From assembly GCA_010093605.1 (NCBI GenBank), contig MU004185.1, positions 1,013,334 to 1,077,333 on the forward strand: a DNA stretch of 64,000 bases. Reading direction: 5' to 3'. Shown here piece after piece: positions 1-27,889 of the stretch (positions are counted from its first letter, which is position 1; each line of letters opens with the position of its first letter). The notes beneath the pieces were generated by a model, which worked only from the letters and a program-made list of their open reading frames with translations, did no database searches and was not told the origin of the DNA. The position numbers were made by a program, and so were the translations under genes. Source of the stretch: Lophium mytilinum. Lineage: Eukaryota.

Positions 1-996
1 CCGCAAGAAATACCAAACAAGTACCTCCGGCGTCTTCAATCTATTTATCAAAGGCTCGGAGACGCAAAAGCTAGTCCGGGCAACCATGGAGAAGCATATG
101 AAAGACCAGCTCCAAGATCCCGATCTGGAAAGCAAGCTGATACCAAACTGGAGCGTTGGCTGCCGAAGGCTGACGCCCGGGATCAAGTACCTCGAATCCG
201 TCAAGAAAGAAAAAGTCAATCTGGTTATAAGTTCCGTGACTGAGTTTACGCCAACCGGATGCAAATGTGAAAATGGAAACGAATACGCTTTCGACGTACT
301 CGTCTGTGCGACGGGATTCGATGTGTCGTTCCGCCCCCGATTTCCGCTCCTAGGGCGGGATGGGAAGAACCTGCAGGATATCTGGAAGGACGACTCGAAG
401 GGCTACATGGGTGTCGGGGCTCCGGATATGCCGAACTACTTTGTTATGCTCGGGCCAAATTGTCCCATCGGCAATGGGCCTATAATGGCAGCTATCGGTA
501 AGCACCTTTGCTACCTGAGAAGTGAGCATTGAAACTAATCTACATTGCAGAAGCACAAGCCGACTACATTCTCAAATGGTGCGATCGTTGGCAGACAGAG
601 AACATCCGGTCATTTACGCCCAAGTGGGAGGCCGTCGAAGACTTCGTCTCACATTCAGATCGCTACATGCAGTCGACCGTTTGGACTGAGAACTGCAGCT
701 CCTGGTATAAGGGCAACAGTGTCACTGGGCGTGTGTCGGCTCTGTGGCCGGGCAGCACGTTGCACTATCTTGAGACCTTGGCCCAGCCTCGTGCGGATGA
801 CTACGACGTCGTCTACAAGGGCAATCGGTTCAACTGGCTTGGGAATGGGTTCAGTCAGACAGAAACGGATTTGACTAGCGATTGGGCTTATTACATCCGT
901 GAAAGCGATGATTCGGAGTATCTGAGCAAGAAGAAGCAAAGGCAGATCTTGACGAAGAGTGGAAGCAAGAGTGGTTCGGAGTTCAAGGTGATTTAG
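1..996 (+). CDS. FAD-dependent Baeyer-Villiger-type monooxygenase (StcW-like), 5'-truncated by the window
   Basis: ORFs 86-532 and 529-996 are joined by a GTAAGC...CAG intron (~498-550). Motifs GCRRLTPG, DVLVCATGF, PNYF..GPN and C-terminal C.SWY..WPGS are typical of fungal BVMOs. Confidence 0.85.
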
Positions 997-1676
997 ATTC
1001 CTGGTTAATAAGATTGAGCGCCCAGTGGCGTCATTGCAAGACCAGAAGAGTGTGTTAATTTCGAAGAAACATCTATCCAGACTTCACATGCGAGTCACGT
1101 GCAAAGACATGTGCTTGACCTACAGCAGTAATCTTCGTCAAGATAGCAGGTACTACCGAACCGGGTCTCTACGCAATTTAGCCTCCCCGACGACCTGGAA
1201 TCAAACGACTAGCCCTACGATCGTCCCAAGATCTCGTTAGCCTCGCTGTAGCTCGGGGGTTGGACAGAAATCCCGCAGACAAACGTGCACTTGCGCATGA
1301 ACCGACGGCTACTCCACCGCTTCCTCGCAAATCAGGCCGAATTCAGCTTTGCATGAACCTGATGCAACTGATTTGTTCAGCATCTTTGAGTCGCATTGCA
1401 AACATGATACTTGCTGGTTCTAGCATCTTTCACATGTATACGAGATTATTTCTACGAATATAAATGCGTTCTACGGTGCAGTGAAGGTCAGAGTCATCGA
1501 ATAGCAGCACAGCGAAAGACGGCGAGTAAAGCGTACTTTCGCAAAGGACAAAATCCAGTATATGTTTCACATCTACGCCATAGAGCTCTACATCTGCGAT
1601 AATCTGGCCGGACTGGAGTGTCATCAGCTCCAAATCTACTTCAGACCCCCTGGAGTAGCTTCGGTCGCAGTGGTGA

Positions 1677-3594
1677 TCAAGTAGAATGGGCGACGTCGTA
1701 CTCAATGTGAGTTAGGTCTTCCTTCTCTCCAGCTCCCATTTTTTCCGTGCCTCCTTCTGCAGGTCGCTCGTCCACATCATCTCCCACAACCTCGTCACCG
1801 AAGACCGTGCTTAACTGTTCTAGCGTGTAGCCCTTCGTCTACCAAAGCTGTTAGATCTCTGATCAAGATGGGACGTTTTTCAGAACTCACCTCAGGAAAC
1901 AAGAAGAACACGGCCAAGATCATCATAAGATCCGTAGCGATAAAGACAATGTAGAATCGCCATCCAATGTTCTTGAACGCAGGAGCCGCAACTGCAGTCC
2001 AAAGAATGGAGCTCAAGAACAGTCCCTGCATTCCGAAGGCGACTCCCTGCGCACGAAGCTGGGTGGGGAAGATTTCGGAGGTGAATACGAAGGAAGCAGC
2101 CTCAATACCCATGGTGTAGCTGTCACTGGGCGTCAGCTTAAGCTTAGAGTTTGTCGGGTACCTCACTTACACGACGATGATCCCGAAGATGAAGAATACT
2201 GCTGCTCTACTCCCTGCAGATTCAGTGCCGGCGTAGAGTTTGGTAAGTACTGTTGCACCAATCAAGCAAACAAGCACACCGATGTAGCCACCCACTGCAA
2301 TGCTAGAATTAGCAACTAACGTCTTGGTCTGCATTCGAAGACATGGAACCAACTTACTCAGCTGGCGTCTTCGCCCTACCCTATCGGCGATGATCGCTCC
2401 GCCCAAGTTTCCAAAGCCATTGAAACTCGACCAGATAGCCGCCATGATGTTGGTCATGAAGGGAGAGAATCCGAGGCCTGCGTATATTGTTGGAGAATAT
2501 GCTACCAATGATTAGCTTCAAACCCCAAGCCGCTGATGCGCGATTCAACGCGTAGGGGATGTACTCAAGAGCACAAGCAATCCGCTGCACTGCGTTCCCA
2601 TCATCGCGAGGAAGCCCAGCATGAACCTCTTCCGGATTGACGGCACTTTCAACGCCTGCCAGGTAGTCATCATGCCCTTCTCCATGTCAAGGTCTGTCTG
2701 GGCCTTGATGATGGAGAATTCGTGGCGCGCAAAGGTATCGGATGGGTCGTTCTTGTCCTTGTGAAGTTTGATTAGAGTCGTCAATGCGCGCTCTTCGTGT
2801 CCGTTGGCGTAGACTGGTAGATCAAAGTCAGTTTACGAGCTACTGATACTTGCTTGCGATGCTTTACTTACGCCACCTAGGACTTTCAGGCATAATGAGC
2901 GTCAAGCCGAACAAGATGGCCGGCCACAAACATTGTATAGCCAGAGGACCACGCCACGCCACCTGTCCACCGGAGTAGAAGAACGCGCAGCCCATGAATT
3001 GCGCAAACATGTTTCCAAAACCGAGTGCAGCGCCTGAAGAGATCCCGTCAGACCGATACAACCTTAGACACAAAGATAACGCGGACTCACCATGTAAACC
3101 TACCAACAGACCTCTCGAGTGCGGCGGTGCTACCTCAGCCTGGTAAAGGGGGATAGCGGGCAGCAGCATCCCAATGCCCACGCCGACAATGACACGAGAC
3201 ACTGCGCACATAGCTATGTTCACGCAGCCTGCCTGAAGCGCACTACCAATGAAGCTAAAGACGCAGCCGACGACCATAGGAGTCTTTCTGCCAAATCGAT
3301 TCGATATAAAGGAGTATGAGATACCTCCTATTACAGCCCCGACGTAGAGCATGCAGTTCCACACGGAAATCATCGAGTTTGCGAAGTCGGCACCGGGGCC
3401 AACCACGTCCAGGCCCATGTAGGTGAAGAACTGGGCCTTTCCGAGAACCGTTGCGAAGATGGAGATGGCATTGCCGTACAAGAAGCTGCCGACACAGGCG
3501 GCGAGAACGATCTGGTACCGTTAGTAAGGAGTCTTTCTAGGGTTGAGTCTTGAAGTGAGCGAACCAAGAGATTGTAGCGTGATTTCTTCTCCAT
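1677..3594 (-). CDS. MFS sugar-porter family transporter (multi-exon)
   Basis: Exons contain RFGRK, YQAEVAPP..RG, PESPRW, DRVGRR, SEIFPT..R and PE/TKG sugar-porter motifs. The last exon reads TKGYTLEQL...HST* ending at 1677. Confidence 0.9.
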
Positions 3595-4060
3595 AGTGAC
3601 GAAGTGTCTAGATGCAGTACGAAATTATGAGAAGGCCTGTAAAGAGATGCAGAGACACTTTAATATCCGAGGAGATACTTCAGTTCTGACCGAAGATATA
3701 TGCATCAGGCACCCCAACGCGAGTCTCGATCCCCACGGGGACCCCATGGGGATGGTGGCGTCGAATGACTCGAATGACTCGTATAGAGAGCGAGAGCAGA
3801 GTGTACCTAGATCCAAAATGTAGACTAGAATAGTCAGCCACCTCAGTAGCTCTCATTCGGTGAACGCCGGCCTCTCACTGGCACCTGCCGAGCCTGTCCC
3901 CCGCATCTCCACCCCAGGACTTTCTGACCAGGTTGTCGGCTAAGTTTAGCGGTTAGCGGAGACTAAGAACTGAAATAGCCACTCGATGCTTTGATAGCAA
4001 TAATCGTATGGTAAACGCCAGAAACTCCTTCGTAAACATCCCTAACTTCATTTTTCCACC

Positions 4061-5385
4061 ATGCCTATGAAAGAGTATCAGGATACGGGTCCCCTCAAGA
4101 TAGGCCCTGATCTGGACTTAAGCAGCCTTCCAGGAAAGTCTGTAATTGTGACTGGAGGTGAGACTTTACGTCAGCTGCAAACCACCAATTCCAATCGTAG
4201 TAACCAGTTTACTAGGGGCCAGCGGACTCGGTAGAGCTTATGCGGAAGCATTTGCGAAGGCAGGGTATGTTGCTTTGGGCCTTGATTTGCTCCTCTCGAT
4301 AACTGACTGTGGCTTTGCTAGTTCATTCGTAACTATCGCCGACTTCAATGATACTGCTGGCAAGGAAGTGGTCCAGAACCTTGCCGGGTAAGTCCGAAAA
4401 CGTGTCCTAGAATCCTGTCGCTCATTCAATTAGCCTGAGGCTAATGGTTTACTCTTTACAGTAAAGCTCAGTTTGTCAAGTGTGATGTTCGCAACTGGGA
4501 CGATCAGGTGCGCGTCTTTGAGGCGGCAGTGCAAGCTTCACCTCACAAGAGCTGCGACATCGTCATTGCAAATGCAGGTATTGTTGGAAAGGATGACCTC
4601 TATACACTGCAAGGTATCAAAACGATCCGTCTCGAATTACCTTACTCGTTTAGTAACGATGTGATCAGATCCCCAGGGTCCGCCGGTCAAACCAGATCTT
4701 CGTATCGTCGAAATCAATTTGATCGGAGCGATCTATACTGCAAAGCTAGCTATGCATTATATGCGCAGACAGCCATTGGAAGACTCTCGTGACCGTTGCT
4801 TGATCATCAAAGCAAGCATCGCTGCGTACATTGATAATGCTGGCTCTCCACAGTACAACATTTCCAAGTTCGGGGCCAGGGCTCTGATGAGGAATTTGCG
4901 CCGGACAATCTGGGAGGAGAATATTCGAGTAAATCTTGTTGCACCCTGGTAAGCTTCTCCACACTTAGTCTCGTACGTTAAAGAGCGGGATGCGAACCCA
5001 AACTAACCACTCTAGGTATGTGCGCACACCAATCCTAGGCCAGAAAGTCCAAGACTACCTTGATGGCCAAGGCGTTGGCTTCGCCTTGACTGAAGATGCT
5101 GCGACGTGCATGCTGAGGATCGCATCAGATACTTCAGTGAACGGTCAGTGTACCTGATCATTCTCGATAGTACGAGCTGACTTCTACAGGACGGGCTCTG
5201 GGTATCGTTCCGCGGGTCACAGCTTCGGAGGGATACATGGATCTTGACAAAGATGACTATAAGGAGGGAGACATCGTCAAGACCTGGCAAGAAATTGCGC
5301 TCGCGACTACGCGATTTCTCGTGGTATGTGGCTAAATGAAGATAGACCGTTGCTATTGAAGCTGACCAAACAATTGCAGGAGTGA
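4061..5385 (+). CDS. Short-chain dehydrogenase/reductase (SDR), multi-exon
   Basis: ATG at 4061. The TGG/ASGLG Rossmann motif is split by an intron. Also VIANAG, the catalytic YNISK motif and IRVNLVAPW. Confidence 0.85.
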
Positions 5386-5677
5386 TTCCGTAGTTGGATG
5401 TCTACCTTGAGGTACTGATGAGAAGAGATGCATGGTAGTTAGATTATCCTTAGTAGCACCTCCAGTAGAATATAAATGCATGAGATCCAAGCCCACTGTT
5501 CCGTAACAAGGCCCTTGCTTGGCAGTCGAAAGAATCTGGAGTTGAAAATTTATACCGTCTCATATTTATTGTCTAAAAAAACATGCGGAGACGACTCGTC
5601 GGCTAGGTCGGAGCAGATTGGAAGCATTCAATAGCTCCTTCTATTGCTTGAAATCCCAAAACTGGTCTCTATTTGCC

Positions 5678-7681
5678 TTATTCGACCCATGAGATTGGAT
5701 TGTCCAGGAACTTCACCGGTATATCCACAGTCTTACTGCGAATGTACTCGGCAACACCTTTGCCCAGCATATCGATCCTTGTGCTACTGGCGCCTCCGCC
5801 TCCAAGGAAATCTAAAAGACGGTAGTGTACCGCCATGATCTGTGGGAATTCGCAACGCTCAACGGAGACAGACTCTTTCCAATCCTCTCCAAGTAACTCT
5901 TTAATGCGGGGAATGGTCAAGAAGCTTTGCAACCAGCTGTACTCTTCGGCATTACGAGCGAATAATCCAACATTGCAGTTATCTCCTTTATCACCAGACC
6001 GGCCGTGAGCAACCGCTCCCAACGGGGCTGCTTTAGTAGGGCCAAAATCTTCCAAAGGTATGGGTTTGGCGGTCTCATTGCTAGGCCTTTTACCGAGCGC
6101 CGGCTGAGTGATTCCGTGGTGTTCAATACTGATGGTTTTATCGGGGAACACCACTCGGTGAGGAAGCTTGGTATAAGCGACGAGGCCAGGGAATAGCTGC
6201 ATGAACATCTTAGGGACCATGGTGCGGAAGTCAAGCGACATGTGATATCCTATACGACCAAGTTTAGTCAAGGGCAGATCAGTGAGGGGTTATGCTCCGT
6301 GCTTACCGGCGTAAAATTGCATCCGTAAAGCATAAAGGTGCTGTCGGAAGACTTTTTCGTCAATGTCCTCTCTTTTCTTGCCTTTGACGAGCACCCGAAT
6401 AGACACTGTGCCTGATGCCTGATTGCGGGGATTCACTGCGGCAGTACCGTATCTCTCGATGCTCAGTTCGGAGAAGTTGGCATCCCGAAAAGCATATTCC
6501 AGCTGCTGACGCATGAATTTCTCTTTCAAGTCGATATCAAGTCCGTTGATGTAGAATGTCGCCTCCGCCTGGTAACCTCCGATTGCAACTGTGATAACTT
6601 TGGTGGTTGGCGGTGGAGGACTTCCCGTGGCGCCAGAAACGCGGACGCGATCCTTCTCGCCTGTATCTTCAATCCGCACGTTTTCAATATCTGCCGTGAC
6701 ATCGGAGTTGATGTATTTAGTGCCTTGGATCTCGTAAAGAAACTGGGCGCGCACGTTGAGCTCTTCAACGTACCCGGCAGCACCTGGATGTTTGGTGATG
6801 ATAGTCGTTCCATCGTGTGCAATCTCTGCGATGGGAAATCCGAGATCAACGAGGCCGTCAATATGAGTCCGTAAACCCGAGAAGTTCGCGCCAGTAACAT
6901 ATGGTCCACATTCAACAAGATCTGAGTGCATGTGTTAATGAATGCCCGAAAGAATTTTATGTTTCAACTCACGGCCGGCGATGAGAGCTCCTGCCAATGC
7001 ATCCCAAGCATCGTAGCTCCAGTTATGCCACCAAGCTGCCAGAGCAATGACGGGGCTAGCATCCGTAACGCGGCCACATACGACTATATCGGCACCATTT
7101 CGCAACGCTTCCACGATGCCCCAGGCCCCAAAGTAAGCTACGCCACAGTACGGCTTCTCGTCCCACGAGTCCAACTTCTGCTCTTGGTGGTCCAAGTGGA
7201 CAATGCCTCCGATCTCCTGCATTTTCTTTGCGTTTGTCACGTATTCAGAGATGTCGTCTCCCTCAATATACGCAACTTTGAGATGGCCGTGACCGTGCTT
7301 CTCGCAGATCTCTCGAACTTTCTTCGCGCATTCCGGGGTGTTGAGAGCACCCGCATTGCTCACAAGCTTTATCTTCTTCTCCGCAATGATGTCGATGCAA
7401 TCGTCCAGTTGTTCTAGAAAGCCTACTTCGTACCCTTTGGTTGGATCATCGTGCTTCCTGATGGCGTTCCACGCGATGTTCAATTCGGACAGCCAGTCGC
7501 CGGTGATTGCGTCCAAGTAACCCTCAGTCACCATACGATGCCTAAGTCCATGTAAGTCACGGATTACGGAAAGTTGAAACTGCATAGATGCTCACATCGC
7601 ATACGGGCAGTCTTCCATTGCCCCGGCGACATTGCCAATGATGATGGGCCGCTTAGGCTCCGAGATTGTTGCTGCAGGCAT
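5678..7681 (-). CDS. DUF1446 / AtuA (acyclic terpene utilisation A) family protein
   Basis: N-terminal PIIIGNVAGAMED, then DAITGDWLSE, GADIVVCGRVTDAS, ECGPYVTGANF, GFPIAE, QFLYEIQG, and C-terminal AHGRSGDKG..CNVG and RIDMLGKG. These are motifs characteristic of the family. Confidence 0.88.
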
Positions 7682-8296
7682 GGTGAGAACTAAGAGTGAA
7701 GAGGGCAATCAGACAAAAGTGTACCGTAAGTTTGACTGTCAAGTGCATCGAGAATATAAACCCGGCGTGCTACCCACTGTGCCAAGGGTTCAGACAGCCG
7801 AGGAGACCTAGCAGTAATGTGCTATATCCGTTGCATACCAATAAGCTCCATAGACCATGGGTACCGTTTTGCAGGTCTCGGACGGAACTTTGCCGCGGTC
7901 AGTGACGGAGGGAGGGGGCTTTGACGCGAAGTCATGCGCTTGGACGGCAAAGGCCGAGAGGATGCGTCTAGCCTTTACGGGAGCGGGACGAATTCGGCAC
8001 GCAACTTGTAGATCGACAGTATTGTACAGGGTATCAAGTCAGGAAATAGTAGAGCGGTTAACAATACATTGCTGGCAGCTGAATGTAGTATTGGTGCTTC
8101 AAGTTAAACGTCACGTGACGTCACTTGAGCCGAAACTTGGTTTAAAAAGTAGCAAAGCTGATTCACTCATAGACAGACTTGAAGTCTCATCTAAAAACCC
8201 TTTTGGGACTGCCCAAGCCCCTGTGATGGACGTTCAACGATCGAATAAGTATTTCGTACATGCATGCATGGCAAAAGCCACCTCCTCCTCCCTCAC

Positions 8297-10198
8297 CTAC
8301 GCGTTCATACTGTCTACAGTTAGCAACATGAAGCCCCCTCAGCAGAGCAAACTTACTTTATTAGAACCGTCTTTGGTTCCGTGAAAGCTCTCAAGGCCTG
8401 TGCAAAGAGCTGATTAGCATAGGCCTGCCGCAGGAATCAGGTCACCTTACGTATTCACCAAATTCTCTGCCTATCCCCGACGACTTCTTCCCTCCAAATG
8501 GGACTTGGAGGTTCATCTAATCAACATCAGCAAGAGGAACATTCGCCGTCGACCGCAGTAGACTCACGACGCTTATACAGTTGATCCCGACCACGCCCGA
8601 CTCCACTTTCGCGGAAACCCGCAGCGCACGGGTGATGTCCCTTGTAAAGACACCTCCCATTAGCCCAAATTCCGTGTCGTTTGCAAGCGCTAGGACTTCT
8701 TCCTCTGTCTTGAACGTCATGACCACGGACACGGGTCCAAAGACTTCTTCGAGTAGGATCTGGGCGTCAGGTTTTGGGTTCACGAAAACCGTCGGCTCCA
8801 TGAAACAACCGCTGTCGCCTTGTTGATTGCCACCCGCAAGCAGCTCGGCCTCAGTTTTGCCGCGTTCCACCATGGCTTTTACCCTTTCAAAAGAAGCTGC
8901 ATCAGCAAGAGGCCCAAGAGTGGTCTGAGGATCTTGTGGGTTTCCAAGTTGCTTTGCCGCTGCTTGCATCCTCTCCTTGTAGGCTTGAATGAACTCGCCA
9001 GCTATGCTTTCTTGCACGTAGACACGCGAAGCTGCGACACAGACTTGACCTGATCGCGCTAGAATGCCGTTGATAGTCCTACATGTTTAGGTACAGTCAG
9101 TAATGTTACCATCACAGGTTTCCGCGAGACTGACCAAGTTAGAGCGTTTTCGATATTAGCGTCTTCGAAAATAATGGCAGGACTCTTCCCCCCTATTCGT
9201 AATCAGATCAGCTAGGCGCAGTTCACATTTGCGATTGAGACTTACCGAGCTCAAGAGTGACGCGTTTCAGGTTACTTTGTGCAGCCATGATCTGGATTTT
9301 CTTTCCTGTGGACACACTGCCTGTGAAACTAATCTATACACGGTGAAGTCAGCAATATGGACGTCTTAAAAATGCAAGAGGACGCTTCTGACCTTTCTGA
9401 CTCTCATATGCTTGGACAGCAGTGCTCCAGTCGCTCCACCCCCGCTGAGTACCTGGACGACACCTTTGGGAAAGCCCGCTAGCTCGAACAAGGGAGCAAC
9501 CGCGAGGGAGCCCAATGGTGACTTTTCGGAGGGTTTGACTATGAGGACGTTGTTAGTTGCCAGGCATGGTGCCGCCTTGATAAATAAAGATGCAACTGGC
9601 GAGTTGTAAGGGTTGATGGCAACGCAAACGCTGTTGGACCGCTGTTAGCAAACTAGCGGCTGCAGAAATAGGTAGTGGAGCAAGAGCATACCCAAGAGGC
9701 TCATGCCTTACGAGTTTCACGAAGCCATCGTCGGCCGGGAAGTAGTCACCCCTCTGCTTGTCCGTCCATCCCGCTGAACTCAAATGTCAGGAAAGATACA
9801 AATATGCGGGTAGGGTCTTGAGCCAAACCGTAATACAGAAGGCAGTTTTTGATATAGTTTTTCTCGCGCGTTGGTATGATAGAGACGGGGTTTCCAGTCG
9901 TCAACGAGTCTAACGTCAGTATTGGTTCAAGATAGTCTTCCAACAAGCTGGCTAGCTTCAGCAAACATTCTGCTCTCTTTGCTCCTGAAAATCCACTCCA
10001 TGGACCATTGAACGCAGCTTCGGCAGCAGTAACAGCTCTATCCACGTCTTCCTCTCCAGCGATAGGCACGTGACTTGTTACGACGGTGTTGTCCTTGGGA
10101 TTGCGGAGCTCAAGCTTCTCCCCAGAGCGGGACTCGACGTACTCTCCGTCGATAAACAGTTTGGTGTACTCGGTAGCTGATTGAACAGTATACATCAT
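8297..10198 (-). CDS. NAD(P)-dependent aldehyde dehydrogenase (multi-exon)
   Basis: Motifs LFIDGEYV, HEPLG, FTGS, TLELGGKSP, GQVC (catalytic Cys), EEVFGPV, PFGG.K.SG and terminal FTEPKTV. Confidence 0.93.
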
Positions 10199-10874
10199 GA
10201 GGTGATGTGTTGGCTATGCGACAGAACGCGTCGACGACAGACTATCAAAACGTTTTCAGCCACCATCGATGACGACCACAGGGATCAAACTGGAGACCTC
10301 GGTGCAAGGCGTCCCGATCACCTTGGAGCTCCCCGCCATGGCAACGCGTTAAGATGTGGAGATACCCAGACGGCAGGATGGCCGAGGATTGAGGGGCAGA
10401 CGCTAGGCGGTTGCCGACGACCCTGTCCAGCACTTCTGCATACTCCACTCTTCTCCACCCTACCCCGCGAGACGCGTCCCGGGAAGAAATCCGATGCACA
10501 GAAATGCGTGTGAATCGCGTGGAGATACCAGCCATGTGCTGCAGGGGTAAGCCGCCATCATGACGAAAGCCATCATGTGGCAATCCGATCCACTTGTTTG
10601 GCGCTAGTAGTGGAGCGAACACGGCCCAAGTTCCCGCTGGTTCTTCACTTTCTTCATCACGGGACGATGCCTGCATCATGGAGACGGAGGGGCATCCAGG
10701 GGTACCCGACTGCGCGGATTTCGACTCCCTCGCAACTTATCAGAACGCGCCACCACGTCTTCGCCCATCTCAGAACCGACACTGTTGATCTGCGGGTACC
10801 CAATTGGAATTTCTAGAGCTTCAATCGATTCTCAGCATACATTGACCATTTTCTGACCCTCGAGCTTCGCCAAC

Positions 10875-12212
10875 ATGACTATGAAGGCAGTGGTGTTCCA
10901 CGGCGCTTTTGACGTGAAGGTCGAAGATCGGCCCAAACCCACCATCAAGGATGATACAGACGCATTGGTGAAGGTGGAGTTGGCAGGACTGTGCGGCAGG
11001 TATGTTTCTTGATCAGTCTTCTGCTATGAGGACCAATGTTGACCATTCTCGATCATAGTGAACTGCATATGTTCAGAGGCCATCAAAAAACGAAGACCGG
11101 ACATATCATGGTATGTGAAGCTGCATTGAGGCATAGGTGGCACTATCTTATCCAATATGCGTACAGGGCCATGAGTTTGTTGGCGTAGTTGATTCCGTGG
11201 GCCCAAAGGTGACCAAATACAAGCCTGGGGACCGAGTTGTGTCTGTATTTGCGACAGTATGGTGAGCTTCTACCACCAAGTACCCAGGATCGAATTCTAA
11301 GAAGACGCCATAGTCAAACCTGCTGGTTCTGTCAACGAGGACTCGGAAATCGCTGCGCCAACTCTCTCGCGTTCGGTACCCAGCAACTCGATGGCGGCCA
11401 GGCGGAATACGTTCGAGTCCCATTTGCAGAAGGCACATTACAACACGTTCCACCAAACCTTGATGAACGTCTTCTGGTTATGATGTGCGACATATTCCCG
11501 ACAGGATATTACGGCGCAATGAGAGCGATCGAATTTATCGGTAAACCTCTGCTACCCCAGGCAGTCCAGAACGGGTCAGGCCACGAGAAGCGAGCCGCGA
11601 CTTTTGAGCCCCAAGCGCTGAAAGACACGGTATTCGTAGTTCTAGGATGCGGACCTGTGGGCATATGCGCAGTTCTTACAGCCTTGTCGAAAGGTGTCGG
11701 CACTGTATACGTAGTAGATGCTGTGGACGAGCGACTAGCAGAAGCGGAAGCTGTGGGTGGAAAACCTCTCAAGCTTGGCCGCGACGATATTCAAGAAATT
11801 GTAATGAAAGCTACAGACGGCCGTGGCGCCGACGCAGTAGTTGAGGTGGTAGGCAATAAACCGGCTCTGAAGTCTGCTATCGATCTAGTCCGAGTATGCG
11901 GCATCATTTCATCGATAGGATTCCACCAGAGCGAGCTTCCTTTTACAGCATTCGAAGCCTACCAGAAAAACGTGACGTAAGTTCTCAAGATCATTTGCTT
12001 TTGAGTTTGTACCAATGGCTATCCTATTCCACAGGCTCAATTTCGGGCGGGCACCAATCAGTACGCTGTTCCCAGAGGCGCTTGAGTGCCTGAGGGAAAA
12101 CAAGGAGAAGGTGGCAGCTTTCATTTCCCACGAGATTCCGTTGGCGCAGGCACCGCATGGATACGACATTTTTGAGAAATATCAGGCTCGCAAGGTTGTT
12201 TTCAAAGTATGA
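10875..12212 (+). CDS. Zn-dependent alcohol dehydrogenase (MDR family)
   Basis: Motifs [19 protein letters not shown], structural-Zn [23 protein letters not shown] and GCGPVG. Ends RKVVFKV*. Confidence 0.92.
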
Positions 12213-12836
12213 ATTCAGCAGCCCTACAATTCAGGTAATTAAGGCGCCAGGATTGGAGTGCCTGCTTCATCCAAGTGTCACACTCCCTAGCCACTCAGAT
12301 GCTTAATCATCGCATCAAGATATGTGCTGCGTAAAGGTGGATCTACAAGAGCTACAGGGATGCCAGTAACTATGAACTTAGTCGTCTAGTGACTTCCGAG
12401 GCTTCGCAATTACGATAGCGATCTATAGAAGTTCTATCTCGATATAGACCGATCAAAATACGCAACCTGTCGTGATATTTGACTGAAACATGATTTTCAT
12501 GGAGTTTCGTTCAGTGAAGGTGGATTTAAGGCCTCGCAGTAACAAACAGTTTCCTGACAGAGACTAGCTTGACCATTGCGCGGTGGAAGGTGATCTTTGA
12601 AGAATGGTCGAGACTTTGGCAGACTTGGCAGTCTAGGGGGCGCTATTGAGGAGCGGGGGATGGTCAGAAATTGCGGGGATCAGGCAATCTGCCGACTACA
12701 TAGTCCAACCTTAGTCCAACGACGACGTGAAAGACCCTCGGACCTCCACACACCACTTCCATGCATGTTCCATCTCTATTCGGCCTACCACCCCGACACG
12801 TCACCCAACTATTGAAGACTCATTGGGCTCTGAAAC

Positions 12837-15291
12837 ATGCAGGCCTGCGATCGCTGCCACTCTCGAAAGACGCGCTGTGACCGCCGGTTACCAAGTTGTA
12901 CAGCTTGCGAAAAGGCTGGAGCTCAATGTCTGCACAGGGATAAGTTGAGGCAGCGGCACATGCCCCGTGGCTATGTTGATGGAATCGAGAGCAGGCTGCA
13001 AACCACTTCGGAAGAAAACGCCAGACTGAGGCACGAACTAGCTACACTGCGCAGTTCTGTTGGTCCTGGAAACAGTGGAAGTTCGCAAGCTACCATTAAC
13101 TCTCCTAGAGCGCACAGCTGGGACCAAGGCTCCTACAGTGTCAATCCTGTCATGAGCGATGGCCAAACCGACACGAGAAGATTTGATGCCGGACTCAGTG
13201 GAAGCCCGCAAGGCGCCATCAACTCTAACAACGGAAACGGATGGAACCAGGGCTCTTATAATGCCAACCCCGTCATGAACGAAGAGCGGACCGACGCGCG
13301 AAGATCCACCGACAGTCCTGCGGTTGAGCCACCAACGAGCGCAGAAAACACCCCAGGATCGGCCGAAGATGCAGTCAGCACTGAAGTGGGCTATCTGTCA
13401 CTTAAAGCCACAGGCGAGACTCGCTATGTCGGGTCTAGCAGCGGCATCGGTCTAGCCAGCATCATCAGTCATATGGTTGATGAAGGCGCAGGGCTCACAC
13501 TGCTGCCCACGGACATGAGAGATGCGAATCCTCCCGGTCCTCTCAACACCGCCGGCCCTTGCTTGGATAGCTCACTACCCCCACGACAATCGGCGATGCC
13601 TTTCATAGAGGCATACTTTCAACATACGCACATCACTTTCCCGTTGCTACATCGTACAAGCTTTCTCCGTACTGTCGACCAGATATATAGCGATCCAGAC
13701 TATTACGCATCACACACGTACGACGCATACGTATTCGACATGGTCTTGTCAATCGGAAGCTCTAACTTCAATCGATTCGGGGATGCATCAGCTAGCTCGG
13801 CAACCCATTATTCTCGGGCACAGTCGAAATTGCCTGCTGTATTGGGGATGCCCAGCTTGAGACCACTTCGGGCAATCATCCTCTTGTCACAACACGGCAT
13901 ATTTAGCAATCTCAAAGACACCAGCGCTAGCATATGGCATCTAATCGGAATAGGTGTGAGAATATGCTACGAGATGGGGCTTCATCTCGAACCGCGATAC
14001 CCTGGTAACTCGGGAGATGCGCAAAGTCGGCCCGTGACGTTCGAAGAAGAGATGAATAGGCGGTGCTTTTGGTGCCTCTACAACCTCGACCGGTAAGTTA
14101 CCTGAATTAAATATGGGGGCACCACGCTACTGATACTCATTCTATAGGGTCGTAAGCTTCACTTTAGGTCGTCCGGCCGCCATCAAAGACGAGGACATTG
14201 ATGTCTCGTTACCTGCGTATTTCGATGATTCTGAATTCGGTCCTGGTAGACCTCTCCCTCAACAGCTGGCCACTGGCTTGAGATCGTCTCCATTCTTGCA
14301 TCTAATTCGCATCCGTCGTCTGTCCGGAGAGATTCTCGTGGCATTTTATGCTGCGAGGCAGAATCCCAATCTATCTTATGACGAAAAACGAAAGCTTCGA
14401 CAGAAACTACACGAGCAAGTCGTCAAATGGAAGGACGACACAGTGCATCTCAACTTGGTTGCAAAACCCGAACACAACGGGTCTTTCAAATCCTGCTTCT
14501 TGTCTGAGGAGTGGTACACAGCTGTGTTCAACAACGCCATGCTTCTCCTCTACCGGCCTTCGCCATCATTCCCTCATCCCACCAACTCGGCAAATCAGAG
14601 CAACGAAGAAGGGGATCTCTTGCACCTGTTCACTGCCGCCAAAAGCACTATCAATGCATACGCGGAGCTGCATAGCAAAAGGCGTCTCAATTATTCTTGG
14701 ATAACGTTGCACGGAGTCTTTCTCGCTGGCCTTGCATATGTATACTGCGTCGGTCGGGCCCTGAAGGATCCTACGCCGCTTTTACCAGTCCCAGCATATC
14801 TAGAAATCATTGACGATACCCGCGCCTGCTCGAACGTTCTAGTGGCTATCTGCGAGCGATGGAATGTCGTCCGTCGATCTTGCGAACTTTTCAACCGGCT
14901 CAGCAACGCCGTCATTCGTGACGCCGTCAATGACGCAGCCAAACAGCACCATAGGACATTTACCCAAACATATACTCCGGACCAATCTTCCAGGCCGGTG
15001 CAGAGTCAAGCAACTCCGACTCAAGGTAGCGCACAGCAACATAGCACGGCGCCATCCAATTTCAACGACTTTGGCATGGCCATGGATCAAATACCCATGG
15101 GAGACCACTTCTTCGTGGCCGACGAGTTTAGACAGTACTCGGAAACGTTTGATGGCATGTTTTCAGACGACCAAACTTTTCCGAGTGAGCTTGTGACGGG
15201 CTTTTCTCAGGATTGGCCGTTCGATGACACCTTTGTTCAACAACCAACGTACGGGATGCCGATGCAGCATGAAGACAACCTGCAGCATTGA
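12837..15291 (+). CDS. Zn(II)2Cys6 fungal transcription factor with Fungal_trans middle region
   Basis: ACDRCHSRKTRCDRRLPSCTAC..C binuclear cluster followed by a coiled coil, then YFQHTH..FP and RRCFWCLYNLDR. One intron at ~14093-14147, and an acidic C-terminus. Confidence 0.95.
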
Positions 15292-15400
15292 CACCACTGA
15301 GAGCGACTATCTTCATGTGTTTAAATTAATTCACTGTATCTGTACAGAGGCTGTATTTTACATTACGACTGGCGACTTGACCATCTGAATGAAAATTTCT

Positions 15401-17821
15401 TCAAAGTTTGCTTGTTCGCGTGACAAGCTTCTCCTCCCCGTCGACAGGGAGCTTCTGGTACTTCTCATACTCATCCAAGCTGTGTGGATTTGCCACTGTG
15501 CCGCTTACAGCTACCGTCCGTCCGCTGACTAAATTCTTGACGTTGATTTCGCACTTCTTCCCGTTCACCGTATACGGAATATCAGCAACCTCAAAAACGA
15601 ACTTCGGGACATGGCGAGTTGAGTACTTCTGCCGTATAGCCTGCTTTACTCTCGTCGCCAAGTCCTCGCTAAATTTTTGGCCGGTCTTCATCTTCACAAA
15701 TAGAAGGACACGCTCGTCGGCGTCAATCTCTCTTCTCTGACCAACGCAAAGGCTGTCTTCAATCTCAGAAAACAACTCGGTTACCGCATAGATCTCCGCT
15801 GAGCCGAAGCGAACGCCAGATGGATTGAGAACGCCGTCCCTGTTTCGTCAGCATTTGATCGAAGTTGCGCTTCAGCATGCACTCACGATCTTCCTAGCAT
15901 AATGAGCCCCTGCGTATCTTCCTCCACTAGAATGAAGTCCCCTTGGCACCAGATCTTGTCGCCAAATCGCTCAAAGTAGGACTTGCGGTACCTTTCGACG
16001 CCTCCGGCCCCAAAGAATTGAAGGGGCTGGCTCGGGAACGGTCTGGTGCAGACTAGTTCGCCGGGCAGCCCCGCTGATTTGACAGGTACACCGCTATCCT
16101 CGGAGGCGTCAAAAATTTCTACGGCCATACCTAACGCTTTGGATTGGATCTCGCCTGGGAACACAGGAAGTAAGGGCGTTCCTCCCACGACTGGACTAGT
16201 AAGCGACAAGTTCCGCATTTGAGCATGTGAGAGCTGGACTTACAGCTTCCCGCGATATCTGTTCCCCCACTCATAGAGACCAGTTGAGCGCTTGGTGGGA
16301 ACGCTGTCTCATAGAACCAGTGGTACATATCAGCAGAAAGAACCGCACCCGTCGAAGTCACTGTCCTCAGGTGCTTTAGATTATAGGACTCTCCTTGAAC
16401 GAGTTAGTAGGGAAGCTGAACGAGATATCTAGCGGATGATTACTGGGCACGATGCCGCGAGCTCTGACCTCAGCCAAATATCTAGGCGAAGTGCCAAATA
16501 CAGACACTCTGTATTATGTTAGCTAGCGCTACAACATTGGTTCAGGAGGTCATTACCCAACATCTTCTGCGAGCTTCAGGAGGACTCCGGGTGTTGGATG
16601 GAACGGCGATCCATCGTACAGCATCAACGATTTAGCGGAGCAGAGGTTGACGAAGTTCAACACCCACATCACCCATGCAGTCTGCTTCATCATCAGAAAC
16701 GCGTTTTGTTGATTGTTTTGCCAGATCTTACGGTTGTGTATTGAAACGCTATGTCCGTATCTCGCATATCGTGCTGCAGAACGGAATCGGTTTTCACTTT
16801 GAGCAAGACTCCCTGCGAAAAATGTCAGTCGAGCGTAGTGTCGGCATGGAATGGTTCAATCACCCCTGCGGAATGAACGATGCACTTGGGTGCACCCGTC
16901 TGCGAAAGAGTTAGCGCTGACCCTCTTGATCCAACCCGGGAGACCCACCGTTCCGGAAGAAAAGAGTATAAAAGCTGGATGGCTGAAAGGCAGATAGTTA
17001 AAGTCAAGATCACGGCCGATTCCACCCCTAATGAATTGCTTCATCGTCTCACCACGATGAACGCTACCAGTATCAATCCCCAAATCGCAATACGGCACAA
17101 TCACCACTCCACTCAGATTCCCACCCGCTAGCCGGTGCGACCAGTCCTTAATTCTGTCGCCCAGGCGTATCAACTTGCCCCCGTAAATATACCCATCGTC
17201 TGCAAACACAAGTTTCGGCTTCACTTGCGAGAAGCGCTCCACAATAGCATCTGCACCCAGTTCACACGACGCGGACGACCACAGCGCGCCAATTGACAGC
17301 GCAGCAAGGCAAATCACGAATGCGTCTACTGAGTTCGAGATGGCGGCCGCGACGACGTCGGAAGCTTCTACACCATGGCTAATCATTGCGTCGCGCATTG
17401 CGCGCACCCGCCCGCGCAGCGCGCCCCAGCTGACTCTTTCTACGCCTGCCACGCCTTCCCGAACGAAGTGGATGGCGGTCTCATCGTCTTTGCCGTTGCG
17501 GAGCAGGTATTCGGCGATATTCAGCTTCGCCCGGGGGAAGAACTTGGGAGGGGGGAAGAGAGCGGTGTGGGTGTCTTCGAGCGCGGGTCCGGGGTCTTTG
17601 CTGTGCCCTTGTGGCGCGATATCGAAGAAGGTGTATGCGTCTATCCAGAAATCCTGGAAGGTGGAGGGGTTGATGGACCAGCTGTGTAGGTCGCTGTAGG
17701 ATTCGAGCTGGAGACCGCGTTGGCTGTTCGTTCTTTGGATGAATTTTGCGGCTGGTGTGTTGGATATCGTGGTCGGAGTTGGTTGCCATACGGGCGTCTT
17801 CTGTGGTGGAGATATGGGCAT
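15401..17821 (-). CDS. Acetoacetyl-CoA synthetase-like AMP-binding ligase with C-terminal PTS1 (SKL)
   Basis: Motifs FFPRAKLNIAE, ILFSSGT, SMSGGTDI, GELVCTRPFPSQP, WCQGD, GRSDGVLNPSGVRFGSAEIY and PYTVNGKKCE match the AACS family. Ends ...RTSKL*. Confidence 0.9.
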
Positions 17822-18503
17822 GGCGTGAAGCTGGGAAAGGTACACTCTAGGAGAGAATGGATGGGTTGATAGAGATATTCTAGAGATAGAACTATGGGAG
17901 TCGAGCGTGGACTTGAAATAAAACGCGGCTGCTTTCCTCCGTGACCCACTCTACTATTGTTTTCAGGTCCATGTCAAACGAAGGCACGTCTGAGTACGCC
18001 GAGTCACGGGTATTCAGATTGATGCTGACGTTGCCGAGTACCCGGGTCCGTACCGGAGGTTTCGGTGGAGGTTCCGGAGTAGACCGACGTAGTTAGTTTA
18101 GATACGATTCAGGGGCTAGTCCGGAGCTTTCTCTCCCGACCAGCGGGGTGCTTAAAAGCTCGTCTCGGCGACCGCCGACAACACCACAATCTTGCCAGAG
18201 CTTCCCTCGCGTGCTGGTGTGTTTCTGATGGCGTTCGATGCAAGGAAACTCGGGGGCAGCCCCGTTTGATCCTTTTCCCCGCACCCCAGATATTCAGCTC
18301 TGCTTTACCCCACACAACACTATGGCCGCTCAGCGAATCAGCTTTACAGAAGCCCTCCACCTCCATCGAGCAGGGTGCTTTTTCTGTGAAGAGGGAGAGG
18401 AATGAAGGATATCAATACCCCTATATGAACTCAATCCTCTCAGCATTTCTGTGACCACCTCAGACCTGATAATCCCGCTGCAAATAACTCGCACTGATTC
18501 AAC

Positions 18504-20437
18504 ATGGCGGTTATTTTGTCCCCCTTTGAACTCCTGAAAGCCTACTCTCTGCCTCTCCTTGTCCTTCTCCTAGTTACTCATTTCATCATCAATCGCTATG
18601 GAACGGGCCTGCGAAAGGTCCCCGGTCCTTTCCTGGCCTCCTTGACGGACTTTTGGCGCTTATACCACTCCTACGCGAGCAAAGGCCACAAAGACTACCT
18701 TCTACATCGACAGCACAACTCCCCCATTCTCCGCACAGGCCCAAATACAGTAGCAATCGCAGACTCAGAGGCAATACGGGTGATCTATGGCTGGAAGCCC
18801 GTCTTTCGCAAGGTTGGCGCGCTCCTGGCGCATCTCCGGCTTCTATCAACTCACTGATACTTTGCTTCCAGTCTCAGATTTACACTACACAGGCGCAGCT
18901 CAGTCCACAAGGACAGCTTGTCGATAATCTTGCCTCCACTATGGACGAGCAAGAGCATACGAGAATCACCAAGCCGGTAGCGAATTCGTACAATATGAGC
19001 ACGATGGTCGAGTTTGAACCGCTTGTTGACTCCACATCGCAAGAGTTCGTGCGCCAGATGACTGAGAGGTTTGTGAAACCTGGACGAGAGTGCAGGCTTG
19101 ACCAGTGGCTTCAGATGTATGCCTTTGATGTCATGTAAGCTTTTCCAGTATTCGGCTATAACTCTGGGCACATGTATGCTACTGCTGGGACGCCCCTAGA
19201 GGAAGCTGGATACCACTGTCAGGGGCAGCTTTGTTGACACAAAGCCGTTCCGTCAGAAAGCAGCTCAGAGTACACTGCGCAAAGTACGACATTGCGCCTA
19301 GAGTACGGAAAACTCAAAAGGACAACCCTAGCAGTAGCAGACTAGTATGCATAGACTTATAGCCAGTCGCTATCTATCCTCGCCCCGCCTCCATTCAAGT
19401 TCTGACCAAGATAAAGCGGCGAGATTACGTTCAGCAAGCGTTTTGGTTTTCTAGAGACCGGCCAGGACATCAACGATATGATGCACCACACTGCCAAGTT
19501 CATGACATACACCGGAACCGTAAGTCTGAACCAGGCTCCAAGTCAGACTGACCCTAAACTCTGAACCGCGCAGATCGGGCAAGTCCCCAACCTCGACTGG
19601 TACTTCCGCATCAAAAACCCACTACTCCACATCTTGCGGCCAACAAGCAACATCCTAAGCTTCACCCTCAAACAAATCCAACAACACGAAAAATCCCCCG
19701 AGAAAAACAATCGCGACCTTCTATCCCGCTTCATCGAAGCGCGCCACAAGTTCCCCCACATCGTCGACGACGACCTCCTGCACGACTACACCAACACCAA
19801 CGTAGCAGGCGGCTCCGACACCACCGCGATCATGCTCCGAACGCTCGTCTTCAACATCTCAACGCGGAAGCACGTCCTCGATAAACTCCTCGCCGAGATT
19901 AGCGCAGCCATGCAGGCGCGTCCAAGAGACACCGACCTCGACGCCCCAATCACCTGGGCCGAGGGGCTAAGCATGCCATACTACCAAGCCTGCCTCAAAG
20001 AAGCCATGCGCTACCACCCACCCACCGCTCAGATCCTCCCGCGCGTGGTTCCGCGCGGCGGTGTCGAGTTCTGCGGGTTCTACCTCCCGGAAGGCACGAA
20101 TGTGGGATGCAATGCGTGGACCGTGCACCGCGATAAGAAGCTGTACGGCGACGATGCCGACGAGTTCCGCCCGGAGAGGTGGCTGGAGGCTTCGAGCGAG
20201 CGGGCGAAGAAGATGGAGGCGTTGCTGTTTACGTTTGGGGCGGGGAAGCGGGCGTGTATTGGGAAGAATATCGCGTTGTTGGAGATGACTAAGTTTGTGC
20301 CGGAGTTTTTTAGGCGGTTTGAGGTAAGGGTTGTGGATGAGGGGCGGTATAGGATTACGAGTTCGTGGTTGGCGGTGCAGAGTGGGTTGGATGTTTATTT
20401 GACGCTCCGTCCGACGGAGTCGCTGGTTGGGGGGTAG
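18504..20437 (+). CDS. Cytochrome P450 monooxygenase
   Basis: N-terminal TM segment and PGP hinge, AGGSDTT (I-helix), EAMR (ExxR), PERW and FGAGKRACIG heme motif. Three introns, including a 282-nt one at 19135-19416. Confidence 0.95.
19182..19334. mobile_element. Putative MITE relic inside P450 intron 2
   Basis: TA|CTGCTGGG...CCTAGCAG|TA gives short imperfect terminal inverted repeats flanked by TA. It would explain the unusually long intron. Confidence 0.4.
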
Positions 20438-26434: not shown

Positions 26435-27738
26435 ATGTCGACCGACAAGATCACGTTCTTGACCAATTGGTACATAGCGGTCTTGATGTGTTTGGCGGGA
26501 GAACAGCTTACTGATTGAACGCAGGCACGCCACGCCGTATCACGCTCCGCTATACCTCGCGCAGGCCAAGGGCTTCTTTGAGGATGAAGGTATCAAGGTC
26601 GCTCTGCTTGAACCGAACGACCCTAGCGTGAGCATGTCCGATCTGCTGCAGAGACCAGGGCTGATAATATCTTGCAGGATGTGACCGAGATCATTGGAAG
26701 TGGTAAAGTGGACTTGGGTTTCAAAGCCATGATTCATACGCTTGCAGTCCGTCTAAAGACCCCTTTTTTCACTAGTACCTTCCGAGCTGACAGCTGAAAG
26801 GCCAAAGCCCGTAACTTCCCCGTGCTCAGCATTGGCTCCCTTCTGGACGAGCCATTCACCGGCGTCGTTTATCTCAAGGATTCTGGCATCACTACGGATT
26901 TCCGTACCTTGAAAGGCAAGCGCATTGGCTATGTAGGCGAGTTTGGAAAGGTAACTGCTCACTATTCTAATCCCCTCCATCACTTGAATGCTCGGATTCC
27001 CACCTTTGGATCTCTCACGCAAAATTTCACTGAAACATCAACTAACAGCGGATATAGATCCAAATCGACGAGCTTACTTCCCACTACGGCATGGCCCCAA
27101 CCGACTACACCGCAATCCGGTGCGGAATGAACGTCTCCAAGGCTATCATCTCCGGCACCATCGACGCCGGCATTGGCCTCGAGAACGTGCAAATGGTTGA
27201 ACTAGAGGAGTGGCTCGCCGGCCAAAACCGTCCCAAGACCGACGTCCAAATGCTCCGCATCGACGAGCTTGCCGAACTCGGCTGCTGCTGCTTCTGCTCG
27301 ATCCTCTACATCGGAAACGAAAGCTTCATCGCCCAGAATCCCGAGAAAGTGAAGGCGTTCCTTCGTGCCGTGAAGCGTGCGACCGACTTCGTGCTCGCCG
27401 AGCCCGAGAAGGCGTGGGCGGAGTATGTCGACTTCAAGCCAGTCATGGGCACGACGCTCAATCGCAAGATCTTTGAGCGCAGCTATGCCTACTTTAGCAA
27501 GGATTTGAAGAACGTAAAGAGAGACTGGGAGAAGGTGACTAAGTATGGAATGAGGCTTGGTGTTCTCGATCAAGGATTTGAGCCAAACTACACCAATGCA
27601 TTTCTGGGATGGGAAATGGAGGGTGAGAGTGCGGATCCAACACAGGACCAGAAAAAAATGGTAGAGTTGCAGAAGGATATTGCTGCCTGTGGTGGATTCC
27701 GCAGGTTGAACACTTTGCCGGCCACTGTCAAGGTTTGA
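26435..27738 (+). CDS. NMT1: HMP-P synthase NMT1/THI5 (thiamine pyrimidine biosynthesis)
   Basis: Spliced N-terminus [25 protein letters not shown], plus [12 protein letters not shown] and the diagnostic [11 protein letters not shown] motif. Confidence 0.97.
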
Positions 27739-27889
27739 GCGGTTATGCTTATACGCTCGGCTGCGCACGACAGTGACAGCGTTACGAGATGTATGCAATG
27801 AACAAGGATAGGGAGGATGATGCCTGGCCATTCACTCACTAAATGTTTACCAGTCAGGAGACGCAAACACAGAAATGAACTCGCCCAGC

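Follow-up and report, generated by a model that had tools for sequence, protein, structure and literature searches.

A probable catabolic gene cluster of Lophium mytilinum around a DUF1446/AtuA protein, a likely acetate-releasing lyase

Genes and transcripts of the locus

The DNA studied here is a 64,000-nucleotide stretch of contig MU004185.1 of the fungus Lophium mytilinum (positions 1,013,334 to 1,077,333, forward strand; hereafter the window), and our subject is the group of nine genes in its first 20,437 nucleotides (nt) that surrounds a protein of the DUF1446/AtuA family. The analyses below indicated that this is probably an inducible, apparently undescribed, fungal catabolic cluster built round a probable acetate-releasing carbon-carbon lyase. 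A preliminary description, made from the sequence alone, had listed nine contiguous genes, and gene models built on GT-AG introns recovered all nine as intact protein-coding genes in the same order and orientation. The families were the same as well, with the Pfam and NCBIfam assignments made for single exons in agreement for all nine (aa, amino acids):

1..996, + strand: type I Baeyer-Villiger monooxygenase (BVMO), 3' part; whole protein 581 aa
1677..3594, - strand: sugar-porter major facilitator superfamily (MFS) transporter; 506 aa, 7 introns
4061..5385, + strand: short-chain dehydrogenase (SDR); 303 aa, 7 introns; motifs TGxxxGxG and YxxxK
5678..7681, - strand: AtuA/DUF1446 protein; 613 aa, 3 introns; PF07287 and PF23544
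8293..10198, - strand: aldehyde dehydrogenase (ALDH); 485 aa; catalytic Glu and Cys motifs
10875..12212, + strand: zinc alcohol dehydrogenase (ADH); 370 aa; catalytic and structural Zn ligands
12837..15291, + strand: Zn2Cys6 transcription factor (TF), Ppr1 type; 799 aa
15401..17821, - strand: acetoacetate-CoA-ligase-like enzyme; 690 aa, 7 introns; C-terminal SKL
18504..20437, + strand: cytochrome P450; 512 aa, 3 introns

The catalytic motifs were intact in all eight non-AtuA proteins. The BVMO gene is cut by the window edge, its start codon lying to the left at position 9015 of L003. Its motifs GxGxSG, FxGxxxHxxxW and GNGxSG were all kept, and because the two exons within the window had no Pfam hit, its assignment rests on the exon at L003 9316-9711 and on protein P0205. 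The three divergent promoter pairs described previously (MFS-SDR, ALDH-ADH and ligase-P450) were all present. The cluster also appears to continue leftwards, as had been thought possible, with a second intact BVMO gene of 576 aa and 10 introns that is divergent to the first, followed by an SDR gene and a TF-like gene without a Pfam hit (L003 2675-8466 for these three) and by a glutathione S-transferase (GST) gene. This left extension was not seen in L030, one of the metagenome loci compared below.

RNA contigs from run X1 skipped 14 predicted introns, among 15 of the 33 joints listed: three in the AtuA gene, one in the TF gene, seven in the ligase gene and three in the P450 gene. In run X1, then, transcripts of these four genes are made and spliced. 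X1 is a single run that was taken as RNA partly from its spliced joints and whose contig depth gives no ranking or timing of expression; its low coverage of the MFS, SDR and BVMO genes did not enter the evidence. The second P450 intron (19135-19416) is 282 nt long, about five times the usual length here; an RNA joint confirms it and it had no Rfam match.

The absences noted in the preliminary description were also found. No polyketide synthase, nonribosomal peptide synthetase or terpene synthase-like open reading frame (ORF) was seen in the window (longest stop-to-stop frame 741 aa), where 12 ORFs to the right of the cluster were compared with Pfam, giving other families or none, and the rest were judged by eye. 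There was no backbone gene in the window or in the 30 kb to its left. Neither a biotin carboxylase nor an acyl-CoA dehydrogenase nor a hydratase was found in the nine genes, the four left neighbours or the scanned right neighbours, and none was recognised in the metagenome loci L030-L034. Esterase, lactonase and lactone hydrolase genes were absent from the nine genes, and the core of L030 held no hydrolase either.

The conserved core and its candidate regulatory sites

The AtuA protein belongs to a well separated orthogroup of 33 clusters at 63-100% identity, with the next sequences at 58% or less, which forms one side of a branch with support of 100 in a 59-row FastTree tree. The TF orthogroup is small (41 matches), separate and limited to genomes that mostly carry the same AtuA clade. 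In 18 other fungal species the AtuA and TF genes were no more than five genes apart, a distance read from locus tags and accession numbers, such that accession spacing serves as a proxy for gene order and the intervening genes are unseen. As in the window, the two were three apart in Mytilinidion resinicola, Claussenomyces sp., Phialophora macrospora, Xylariales sp. AK1849, Fusarium solani and Neocosmospora mangrovei. They were adjacent in Cladophialophora immunda, Fonsecaea nubica, F. multimorphosa, Exophiala xenobiotica, Thozetella sp., Cylindrodendrum hubeiense, Fusarium torreyae, Thelonectria olida, Dothideomycetes sp. NU459, Dactylonectria macrodidyma and D. estremocensis, and five apart in Clonostachys solani. 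Counted per cluster, the link was seen for 13 of the 26 named AtuA representatives besides P0001, Grosmannia clavigera has the two genes on a common contig, and the other 12 clusters are represented only by their representatives. Unlinked orthologues had been named beforehand as an outcome that would speak against a cluster; those of AtuA and the TF proved to be linked.

Six metagenome loci (L030-L035) were compared, of which L031 and L032 are the same sequence, L033 is too short and L035 carries a sister-clade gene. The gene series TF-ADH-ALDH-AtuA-BVMO was seen directly in L030, at 50-100% identity per aligned piece (ADH 67-73%; ALDH 68-100% per exon), with the BVMO gene directly beside the AtuA gene. 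L031/L032 carried orthologues of the SDR, TF and AtuA genes, the SDR being 52-82% identical per exon and about 7 kb from AtuA, and L034 had an orthologue of the ligase head-to-head with AtuA, scoring 229 bits versus 86-115 for the three ligase paralogues of the L. mytilinum genome itself. Among the 120 BVMO matches listed there were only three full-length proteins at 66-78% identity, and all three lay 4-5 accessions from the cluster TF. Orthologues of the MFS transporter and P450 were not seen in any of L030-L035. The nine-gene unit proposed initially thus held in part: the conserved core is TF, AtuA, ALDH, ADH and BVMO, the ligase and SDR recur once each, and the transporter and P450 had no recurrence in these loci.

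Several observations were made alongside. A second, different, Zn2Cys6 gene lies directly downstream of AtuA in L034 (4559-5761), and such a gene is likewise merged into model P0476 of Ilyonectria robusta. A bacterial origin of the AtuA clade by recent transfer is not claimed, as P0025-P0033, its members of 580 aa, fall together with proteins of Talaromyces and Aspergillus; the Zn2Cys6 genes of L031/L032 and a GTDB scan that gave one relative at 38% also count against it. We did not use as evidence a possible link to the monoterpene cluster of G. clavigera, whose AtuA and TF orthologues (EFX06350 and EFX06280) share one contig. By accession arithmetic (PMC8120277) these would be CMQ_6671 and CMQ_6601, in a block of numbers that also holds the limonene BVMOs CMQ_6956 and CMQ_7007 and the acetoacetyl-CoA synthase CMQ_6959; CMQ numbers are apparently not positional, and this too was set aside. 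No G. clavigera protein was among the 120 BVMO matches listed.

The site of the yeast regulator Ppr1 is CGG-N6-CCG. Ppr1 (1PYI) has the closest solved DNA-binding domain to that of the cluster TF, and the alignment of the two has no gap in the zinc cluster or in the linker, the part that fixes the spacing of the site. The pattern CGG-N6-CCG occurred 13 times versus 2.3 expected; none of 300 dinucleotide shuffles reached 13, and it was the top of 16 inverted spacings. It was present in four of the cluster's six promoter regions and in five of nine regions of other loci, and we consider these to be candidate sites held in common. The pattern was first noticed in a scan of 48 spacings, before the comparison with Ppr1 was made. 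A refined motif, CGG-N2-A-N2-GCCG, was derived from the same data, and we relied on the plain N6 pattern and not on the statistics of that motif. The candidate sites include:

3858..3869, no strand: candidate TF site CGG-N6-CCG in the MFS-SDR promoter; identical 12-mer upstream of AtuA in L030 (position 9500)
7945..7956, no strand: candidate TF site CGG-N6-CCG upstream of AtuA; identical 12-mer in the BVMO promoter (L003 8695)
18075-18086 and 18166-18177, no strand: two candidate TF sites CGG-N6-CCG in the ligase-P450 promoter

The promoter shared with the second BVMO gene contained two such sites, and four of five AtuA promoters carried the pattern, the exception being that of L034, which has a different TF alongside. 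It was absent from three TF promoters and from the BVMO promoter of L030. Membership of the MFS transporter and P450 genes in the regulon is suggested by one line of evidence, the candidate sites in the MFS-SDR and ligase-P450 promoters. Together, the linkage of AtuA and TF in 18 other species and the enriched common promoter sites support the earlier proposal of a self-regulated catabolic cluster.

The AtuA protein and the proposed pathway

Our AtuA gene model was identical in every residue to database protein P0001. Two of its exons scored 241 and 227 bits against PF07287 (cut-off 22.8) and the last scored 72 bits against PF23544 (cut-off 27), placing it in the family. The predicted structure, based on 150 sequences, had a predicted local distance difference test value of 96.2, and its top structural match was PDB 9EVF, titled "Citramalate lyase - ADP - pyruvate complex". 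The depositors of 9ERQ and 9EVF assigned chain A (cmlA) to the AtuA family and described chain B (cmlB) as a DUF4387 protein. A Foldseek comparison of the AtuA model with chain A gave an E-value of 1e-18 and a template modelling (TM) score of 0.72 by target, and that with the 105 residues of chain B a probability of 1.0 and a TM score of 0.74. VIA aligned 408 residues with chain A at a Z-score of 31.5 and a root-mean-square deviation of 3.3, the next chain having a Z-score of 9.5. The predicted model therefore contains the folds of both CmlA and CmlB, and the AtuA protein would be a single-chain equivalent, or fusion, of the two citramalate-lyase subunits. The statement in the preliminary description that the biochemical role of AtuA was unresolved has been overtaken by this deposition of an AtuA-family protein as citramalate lyase.

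The relation could also be seen by sequence with a wide profile (A2), which retrieved 9ERQ_A (CmlA) with an E-value of 8e-9. A profile made from the clade only (A1) did not retrieve CmlA, or anything useful, from the PDB sequences, and Atlas searches added nothing. Residues D44, E48, R186, D189, G218, E222, C223, Y281, E282, R507 and S508 were invariant or nearly so in 150 homologues. Several of these form the motifs of the long family, GR-x-x-D (185-189), GH-x-x-EC (218-223), YE (281-282) and RS (507-508), counterparts of which are present in CmlA/CmlB. The pairing of D44/E48 and R507/S508 with CmlA/CmlB was read from alignments by eye, and the shared motifs would have a catalytic role. In Raoultella planticola, Cml splits free citramalate into pyruvate and acetate in a direct reaction (bioRxiv 10.64898/2026.01.16.699985). 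Based on fold and motifs, we consider it likely that the AtuA protein is an acetate-releasing carbon-carbon lyase.

One contig of run X1 contained an additional joint at the 5' end of the AtuA gene:

7672..7724, - strand: extra intron, 53 nt

Removal of this intron deletes the annotated AtuA start codon. The transcript so spliced has an out-of-frame upstream AUG at 7748 and no in-frame AUG before Met22, and may be an unproductive, regulatory isoform. An alternative in-frame N-terminus was rejected, as no in-frame AUG lies upstream after splicing.

For the ligase, each of the three exons tested scored best against two families, TIGR01217 (acetoacetate-CoA ligase) and PRK03584. The TIGR01217 scores of 183, 146 and 85 bits were obtained exon by exon, and the 520.9-bit cut-off of that model applies to the whole protein. 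The C-terminal SKL is a putative peroxisomal signal.

These findings led us to a scheme in which oxidation precedes cleavage. The Ppr1-type TF would bind the candidate CGG-N6-CCG sites and switch the genes on. Where present, the P450, SDR and BVMO would act on a branched compound that carries a tertiary hydroxyl, turn it into a lactone or ester and, with a hydrolase encoded outside the cluster, expose a primary alcohol, which the ADH and ALDH, whose classes are clear, would oxidise to the acid, giving a 3-hydroxy-3-alkyl diacid. The AtuA protein would then cut the free CH2-COOH arm off this tertiary diacid and release it as acetate. A transient activation of the carboxylate that depends on a nucleotide would probably come first, as the ADP in the title of 9EVF suggests. 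The peroxisomal ligase would activate the left-over 3-oxo acid for thiolysis. In the simplest case, mevalonate would be oxidised through mevaldate to 3-hydroxy-3-methylglutarate and cleaved to acetate and acetoacetate, the latter becoming acetoacetyl-CoA. With a 3-hydroxy-3-methylglutarate-type acid the products would be acetate and acetoacetate, and acetoacetate is the substrate of the ligase's family. The scheme builds on the enzyme classes, the linkage of the core, the candidate sites and the fold; its substrates we infer throughout. The order of steps, oxidation by ADH and ALDH, then AtuA cleavage, then the ligase, is a tentative choice to which we give somewhat less than an even chance. 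It uses every gene and works too in genomes without the BVMO. With three further ligase paralogues in the genome, the cluster copy would be free to specialise. As the acetate-lyase route requires no carboxylase, it also explains the biotin-carboxylase gap pointed out earlier. Its most specific form, in which ascomycetes burn mevalonate or related tertiary alcohols independently of CoA via 3-hydroxy-3-methylglutarate, cleaved to acetate and acetoacetate by a nucleotide-dependent lyase of the citramalate-lyase fold, we regard as unlikely. A terpenoid substrate for the cluster is possible; nothing here links the cluster to citronellol.

A number of observations weigh against this reading. The shared fold alone does not establish the reaction, and identity between the AtuA protein and CmlA is only 16%, so that there is no close sequence relation to citramalate lyase. 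A far closer CmlA-CmlB fusion (E 7e-57) is encoded elsewhere in the same genome. The clade has its own N-terminal loop, GAMED (compared with GATGD and GFYGD), and therefore the substrate is not transferable from CmlA. The ligase reads WVMWV at the WMMWN stretch of the solved acetoacetate ligase 4WD1; the Asn of that stretch is also absent from all three of the genome's own ligase paralogues. The linkage of the ligase was seen in one independent locus only, and that of the ADH and ALDH directly in one other locus. In 11 of the 18 species with linked AtuA and TF genes the two are adjacent, which leaves no place between them for the ADH and ALDH genes; in these species both may be missing. No exact CGG-N6-CCG occurs in the window's ALDH-ADH promoter, and the cluster is missing an esterase or lactonase. 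In actinobacteria, 12 of 29 loci of long-type AtuA had, no more than 1.5 kb away, a gene for an acyl-CoA dehydrogenase, an enoyl-CoA hydratase or a biotin carboxylase (30 loci were fetched and L062 was left out), and this frequent company of CoA-ester enzymes indicates a CoA half-ester as the substrate there. As a single case among bacteria, Nocardia aurantia has a long-type AtuA head-to-head with an acetate-CoA ligase (L029 6986-11749), which would fit an acetate product.

The same enzymes could work in the reverse order, with AtuA acting first on a 3-hydroxy-3-methyl or 1-hydroxycycloalkyl acid to give acetate and a ketone, which the BVMO would turn into an ester or lactone for the ADH, ALDH and ligase to finish. 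Ketones are the normal substrates of BVMOs. The position of the BVMO gene beside AtuA in L030 and of the three full-length orthologues, all above 66% identity among the 120 matches listed, near the TF would suit this order, as would the ligase pocket stretch that is unlike the solved acetoacetate ligase. It would get round the beta-methyl block in isoprenoid acids with no carboxylation step, and comes nearest to the terpenoid idea of the preliminary description. We nonetheless find it doubtful, since among those 120 matches and L030 the BVMO orthologues amount to three named genomes and that one locus, compared with 33 AtuA clusters, since acetoacetate-CoA ligase is the best family on all three ligase exons tested, and since the cluster has neither a hydratase to make the 3-hydroxy acid nor an esterase. 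A true fungal Atu route, the idea with which the preliminary description began, would instead draw on unlinked carboxylase, dehydrogenase and hydratase genes, with AtuA acting, in a step of the EC 4.1.3.26 type, on a 3-hydroxy-3-alkylglutaryl-CoA derived from citronellol or geraniol. The actinobacterial loci with CoA-ester enzymes are consistent with such a route, the Atu pathway includes an acetate-releasing step on a substrate of this kind (PMC4097962), and the ligase could first make the CoA half-ester. The route is quite unlikely, however, because the three genes it requires are absent from the cluster, its flanks and L030-L034. In addition, the atu homologues of Verticillium dahliae are unclustered, and the one fungal AtuA deletion found, in that species, grew like the wild type on citronellol-supplemented medium (PMC13399572), in a tolerance assay on rich medium and for a gene that has not been placed in this clade.

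Two further readings would take carbon recovery, or enzymatic function, out of the picture. The P450, two BVMOs, two SDRs, GST and MFS transporter in or beside the cluster, and the sterigmatocystin and MoxY names of close BVMO relatives among the 120 matches listed, could point to a tailoring or detoxification cluster that has no backbone gene, alters a fungal or plant metabolite and feeds no carbon into central metabolism. We judge this decidedly unlikely: the conserved core has no P450 or transporter, the peroxisomal acetoacetate-type ligase and the lyase fold suggest carbon recovery, and a backbone gene was found neither in the window nor in the 30 kb leftwards. A non-enzymatic or unrelated role for the AtuA protein, among a loose collection of neighbours, is very improbable indeed. 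Such a role has been proposed for the mitochondrial VdAtuA3 of V. dahliae, which reportedly binds a subunit of complex I and influences mitochondrial function (PMC13399572), but here AtuA is linked to one TF orthogroup in 18 species despite changing gene order, promoter sites are held in common and the conserved residues match the lyase motifs. On this balance, we retain the scheme in which oxidation precedes acetate release.

Other AtuA loci, significance and comparison with known systems

Orphan catabolic clusters are frequent in such fungi. The L. mytilinum genome (G000) has 10 DUF1446/AtuA loci, and the nine others have different neighbours. One contains the gene that fuses close homologues of CmlA (E 7e-57) and CmlB (E 3e-13), at 6722-8864 of L051, minus strand (about 1528700-1530900 of contig C4), which is a candidate eukaryotic citramalate lyase. 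On contig C2 (L036-L038, about 912000-931000), two AtuA genes flank an MFS transporter, an SDR, two AMP-binding ligases, an enoyl-CoA hydratase and a MaoC hydratase, forming what appears to be a second, CoA-dependent, AtuA cluster of the same genome. On contig C10 (L049-L050, about 849000-865000), an AtuA gene occurs with ALDH, TF, SDR, Zn-ADH, FAD monooxygenase and amidase genes, none of them orthologous to the window genes. The contig of the window itself (C5) carries, at about 58000-88000 (L006-L008), two BVMO-like genes, SDRs, and Zn-ADH-like, MFS, TF and P450-like genes, as judged from ORF translations only. Within the window, an NMT1/THI5 gene was noted at 26700-27750, with no thiamine pyrophosphate riboswitch at the Rfam gathering score, and Rfam found no RNA in the window.

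In the accessible parts of the literature on DUF1446, on AtuA with acyclic terpene utilization and on the family identifiers, with most subscription papers outside the search, we found no published account of this cluster. Nor did we find a reaction described for any fungal DUF1446 protein; the G. clavigera terpene papers were outside the search, and their supplements could list the orthologues as terpene-induced. The cluster genes had no match in the searchable supplements of three sources of expression data (PMC5595782, PMC4368105 and PMC3680317). Two fungal AtuA genes have been annotated only (PMC12148953), a DUF1446 gene of Aspergillus nidulans appears in an expression table (PMC5371717), and DUF1446 has been noted in an enterobacterial glutamate cluster (PMC4682846). 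Elsewhere, AtuA is recorded as having been expected to release acetate once a hydratase has placed the tertiary hydroxyl (PMC13689101), ThnQ/ThnS are tabulated as "AtuA-like lyase" in a review (PMC12016498), and the Pseudomonas atuA promoter responds to acyclic acids (PMC11495318). The acetate-releasing step of the Atu pathway is currently assigned to LiuE (PMC4097962).

The mevalonate-type route, if correct, would give a eukaryotic DUF1446 protein its first reaction. It would also be an alternative to the chemistry of 3-hydroxy-3-methylglutaryl-CoA (HMG-CoA) lyase, and would speak for bacterial AtuA as the lyase that releases acetate in the Atu pathway. More broadly, our scheme, if correct, would mean that fungi strip tertiary-alcohol or beta-methyl branches with no need of biotin carboxylation. 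This would be relevant to the use of branched plant compounds by wood- and plant-associated fungi, and would make the single-chain lyase a candidate biocatalyst. DUF1446 is common in fungi, and this cluster offers a well delimited orthogroup together with partner enzymes, a regulator of its own that has a candidate site, and a template structure.

Compared with the atuABCDEFGH/liu genes of Pseudomonas (PMC4097962), the cluster likewise has a long-type AtuA, alcohol and aldehyde dehydrogenases, an acyl-CoA ligase and a dedicated regulator. It differs in having no linked geranyl-CoA carboxylase (AtuC/F), acyl-CoA dehydrogenase (AtuD) or hydratase (AtuE), in having a BVMO instead, and in its Zn2Cys6 activator, where Pseudomonas has a TetR repressor. 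VdAtuA3 (PMC13399572) is also a fungal PF07287 protein; in contrast to the protein studied here, it is unclustered and mitochondrial, and was without a citronellol phenotype.

The likeness to CmlAB extends over the whole fold of both subunits and the motifs GR-x-x-D, G[KH]-x-x-EC, LYE and RS. Here, however, the protein is eukaryotic, a single chain of 613 aa with 16% identity and a clade-specific N-terminal loop, and its neighbours are oxidative enzymes and a CoA ligase rather than glutamate-fermentation genes. The TF resembles Ppr1/UaY-type regulators in its zinc cluster and linker, which match gap-free, and the N6 spacing of those regulators is the most enriched one here, whereas the TF itself falls in a separate orthogroup. 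In the chn cluster of Acinetobacter, cyclohexanol is handled by ChnA (SDR), ChnB (BVMO), ChnC (lactone hydrolase), ChnD (Zn-ADH) and ChnE (ALDH). The fungal cluster similarly groups an SDR, BVMO, Zn-ADH and ALDH with a regulator, which suggests a sequence from ketone to lactone, hydroxy acid and diacid. Unlike chn, it has no lactone hydrolase beside the BVMO, and it has in addition an AtuA lyase and an acetoacetate-type ligase, implying a branched, hydroxylated skeleton.

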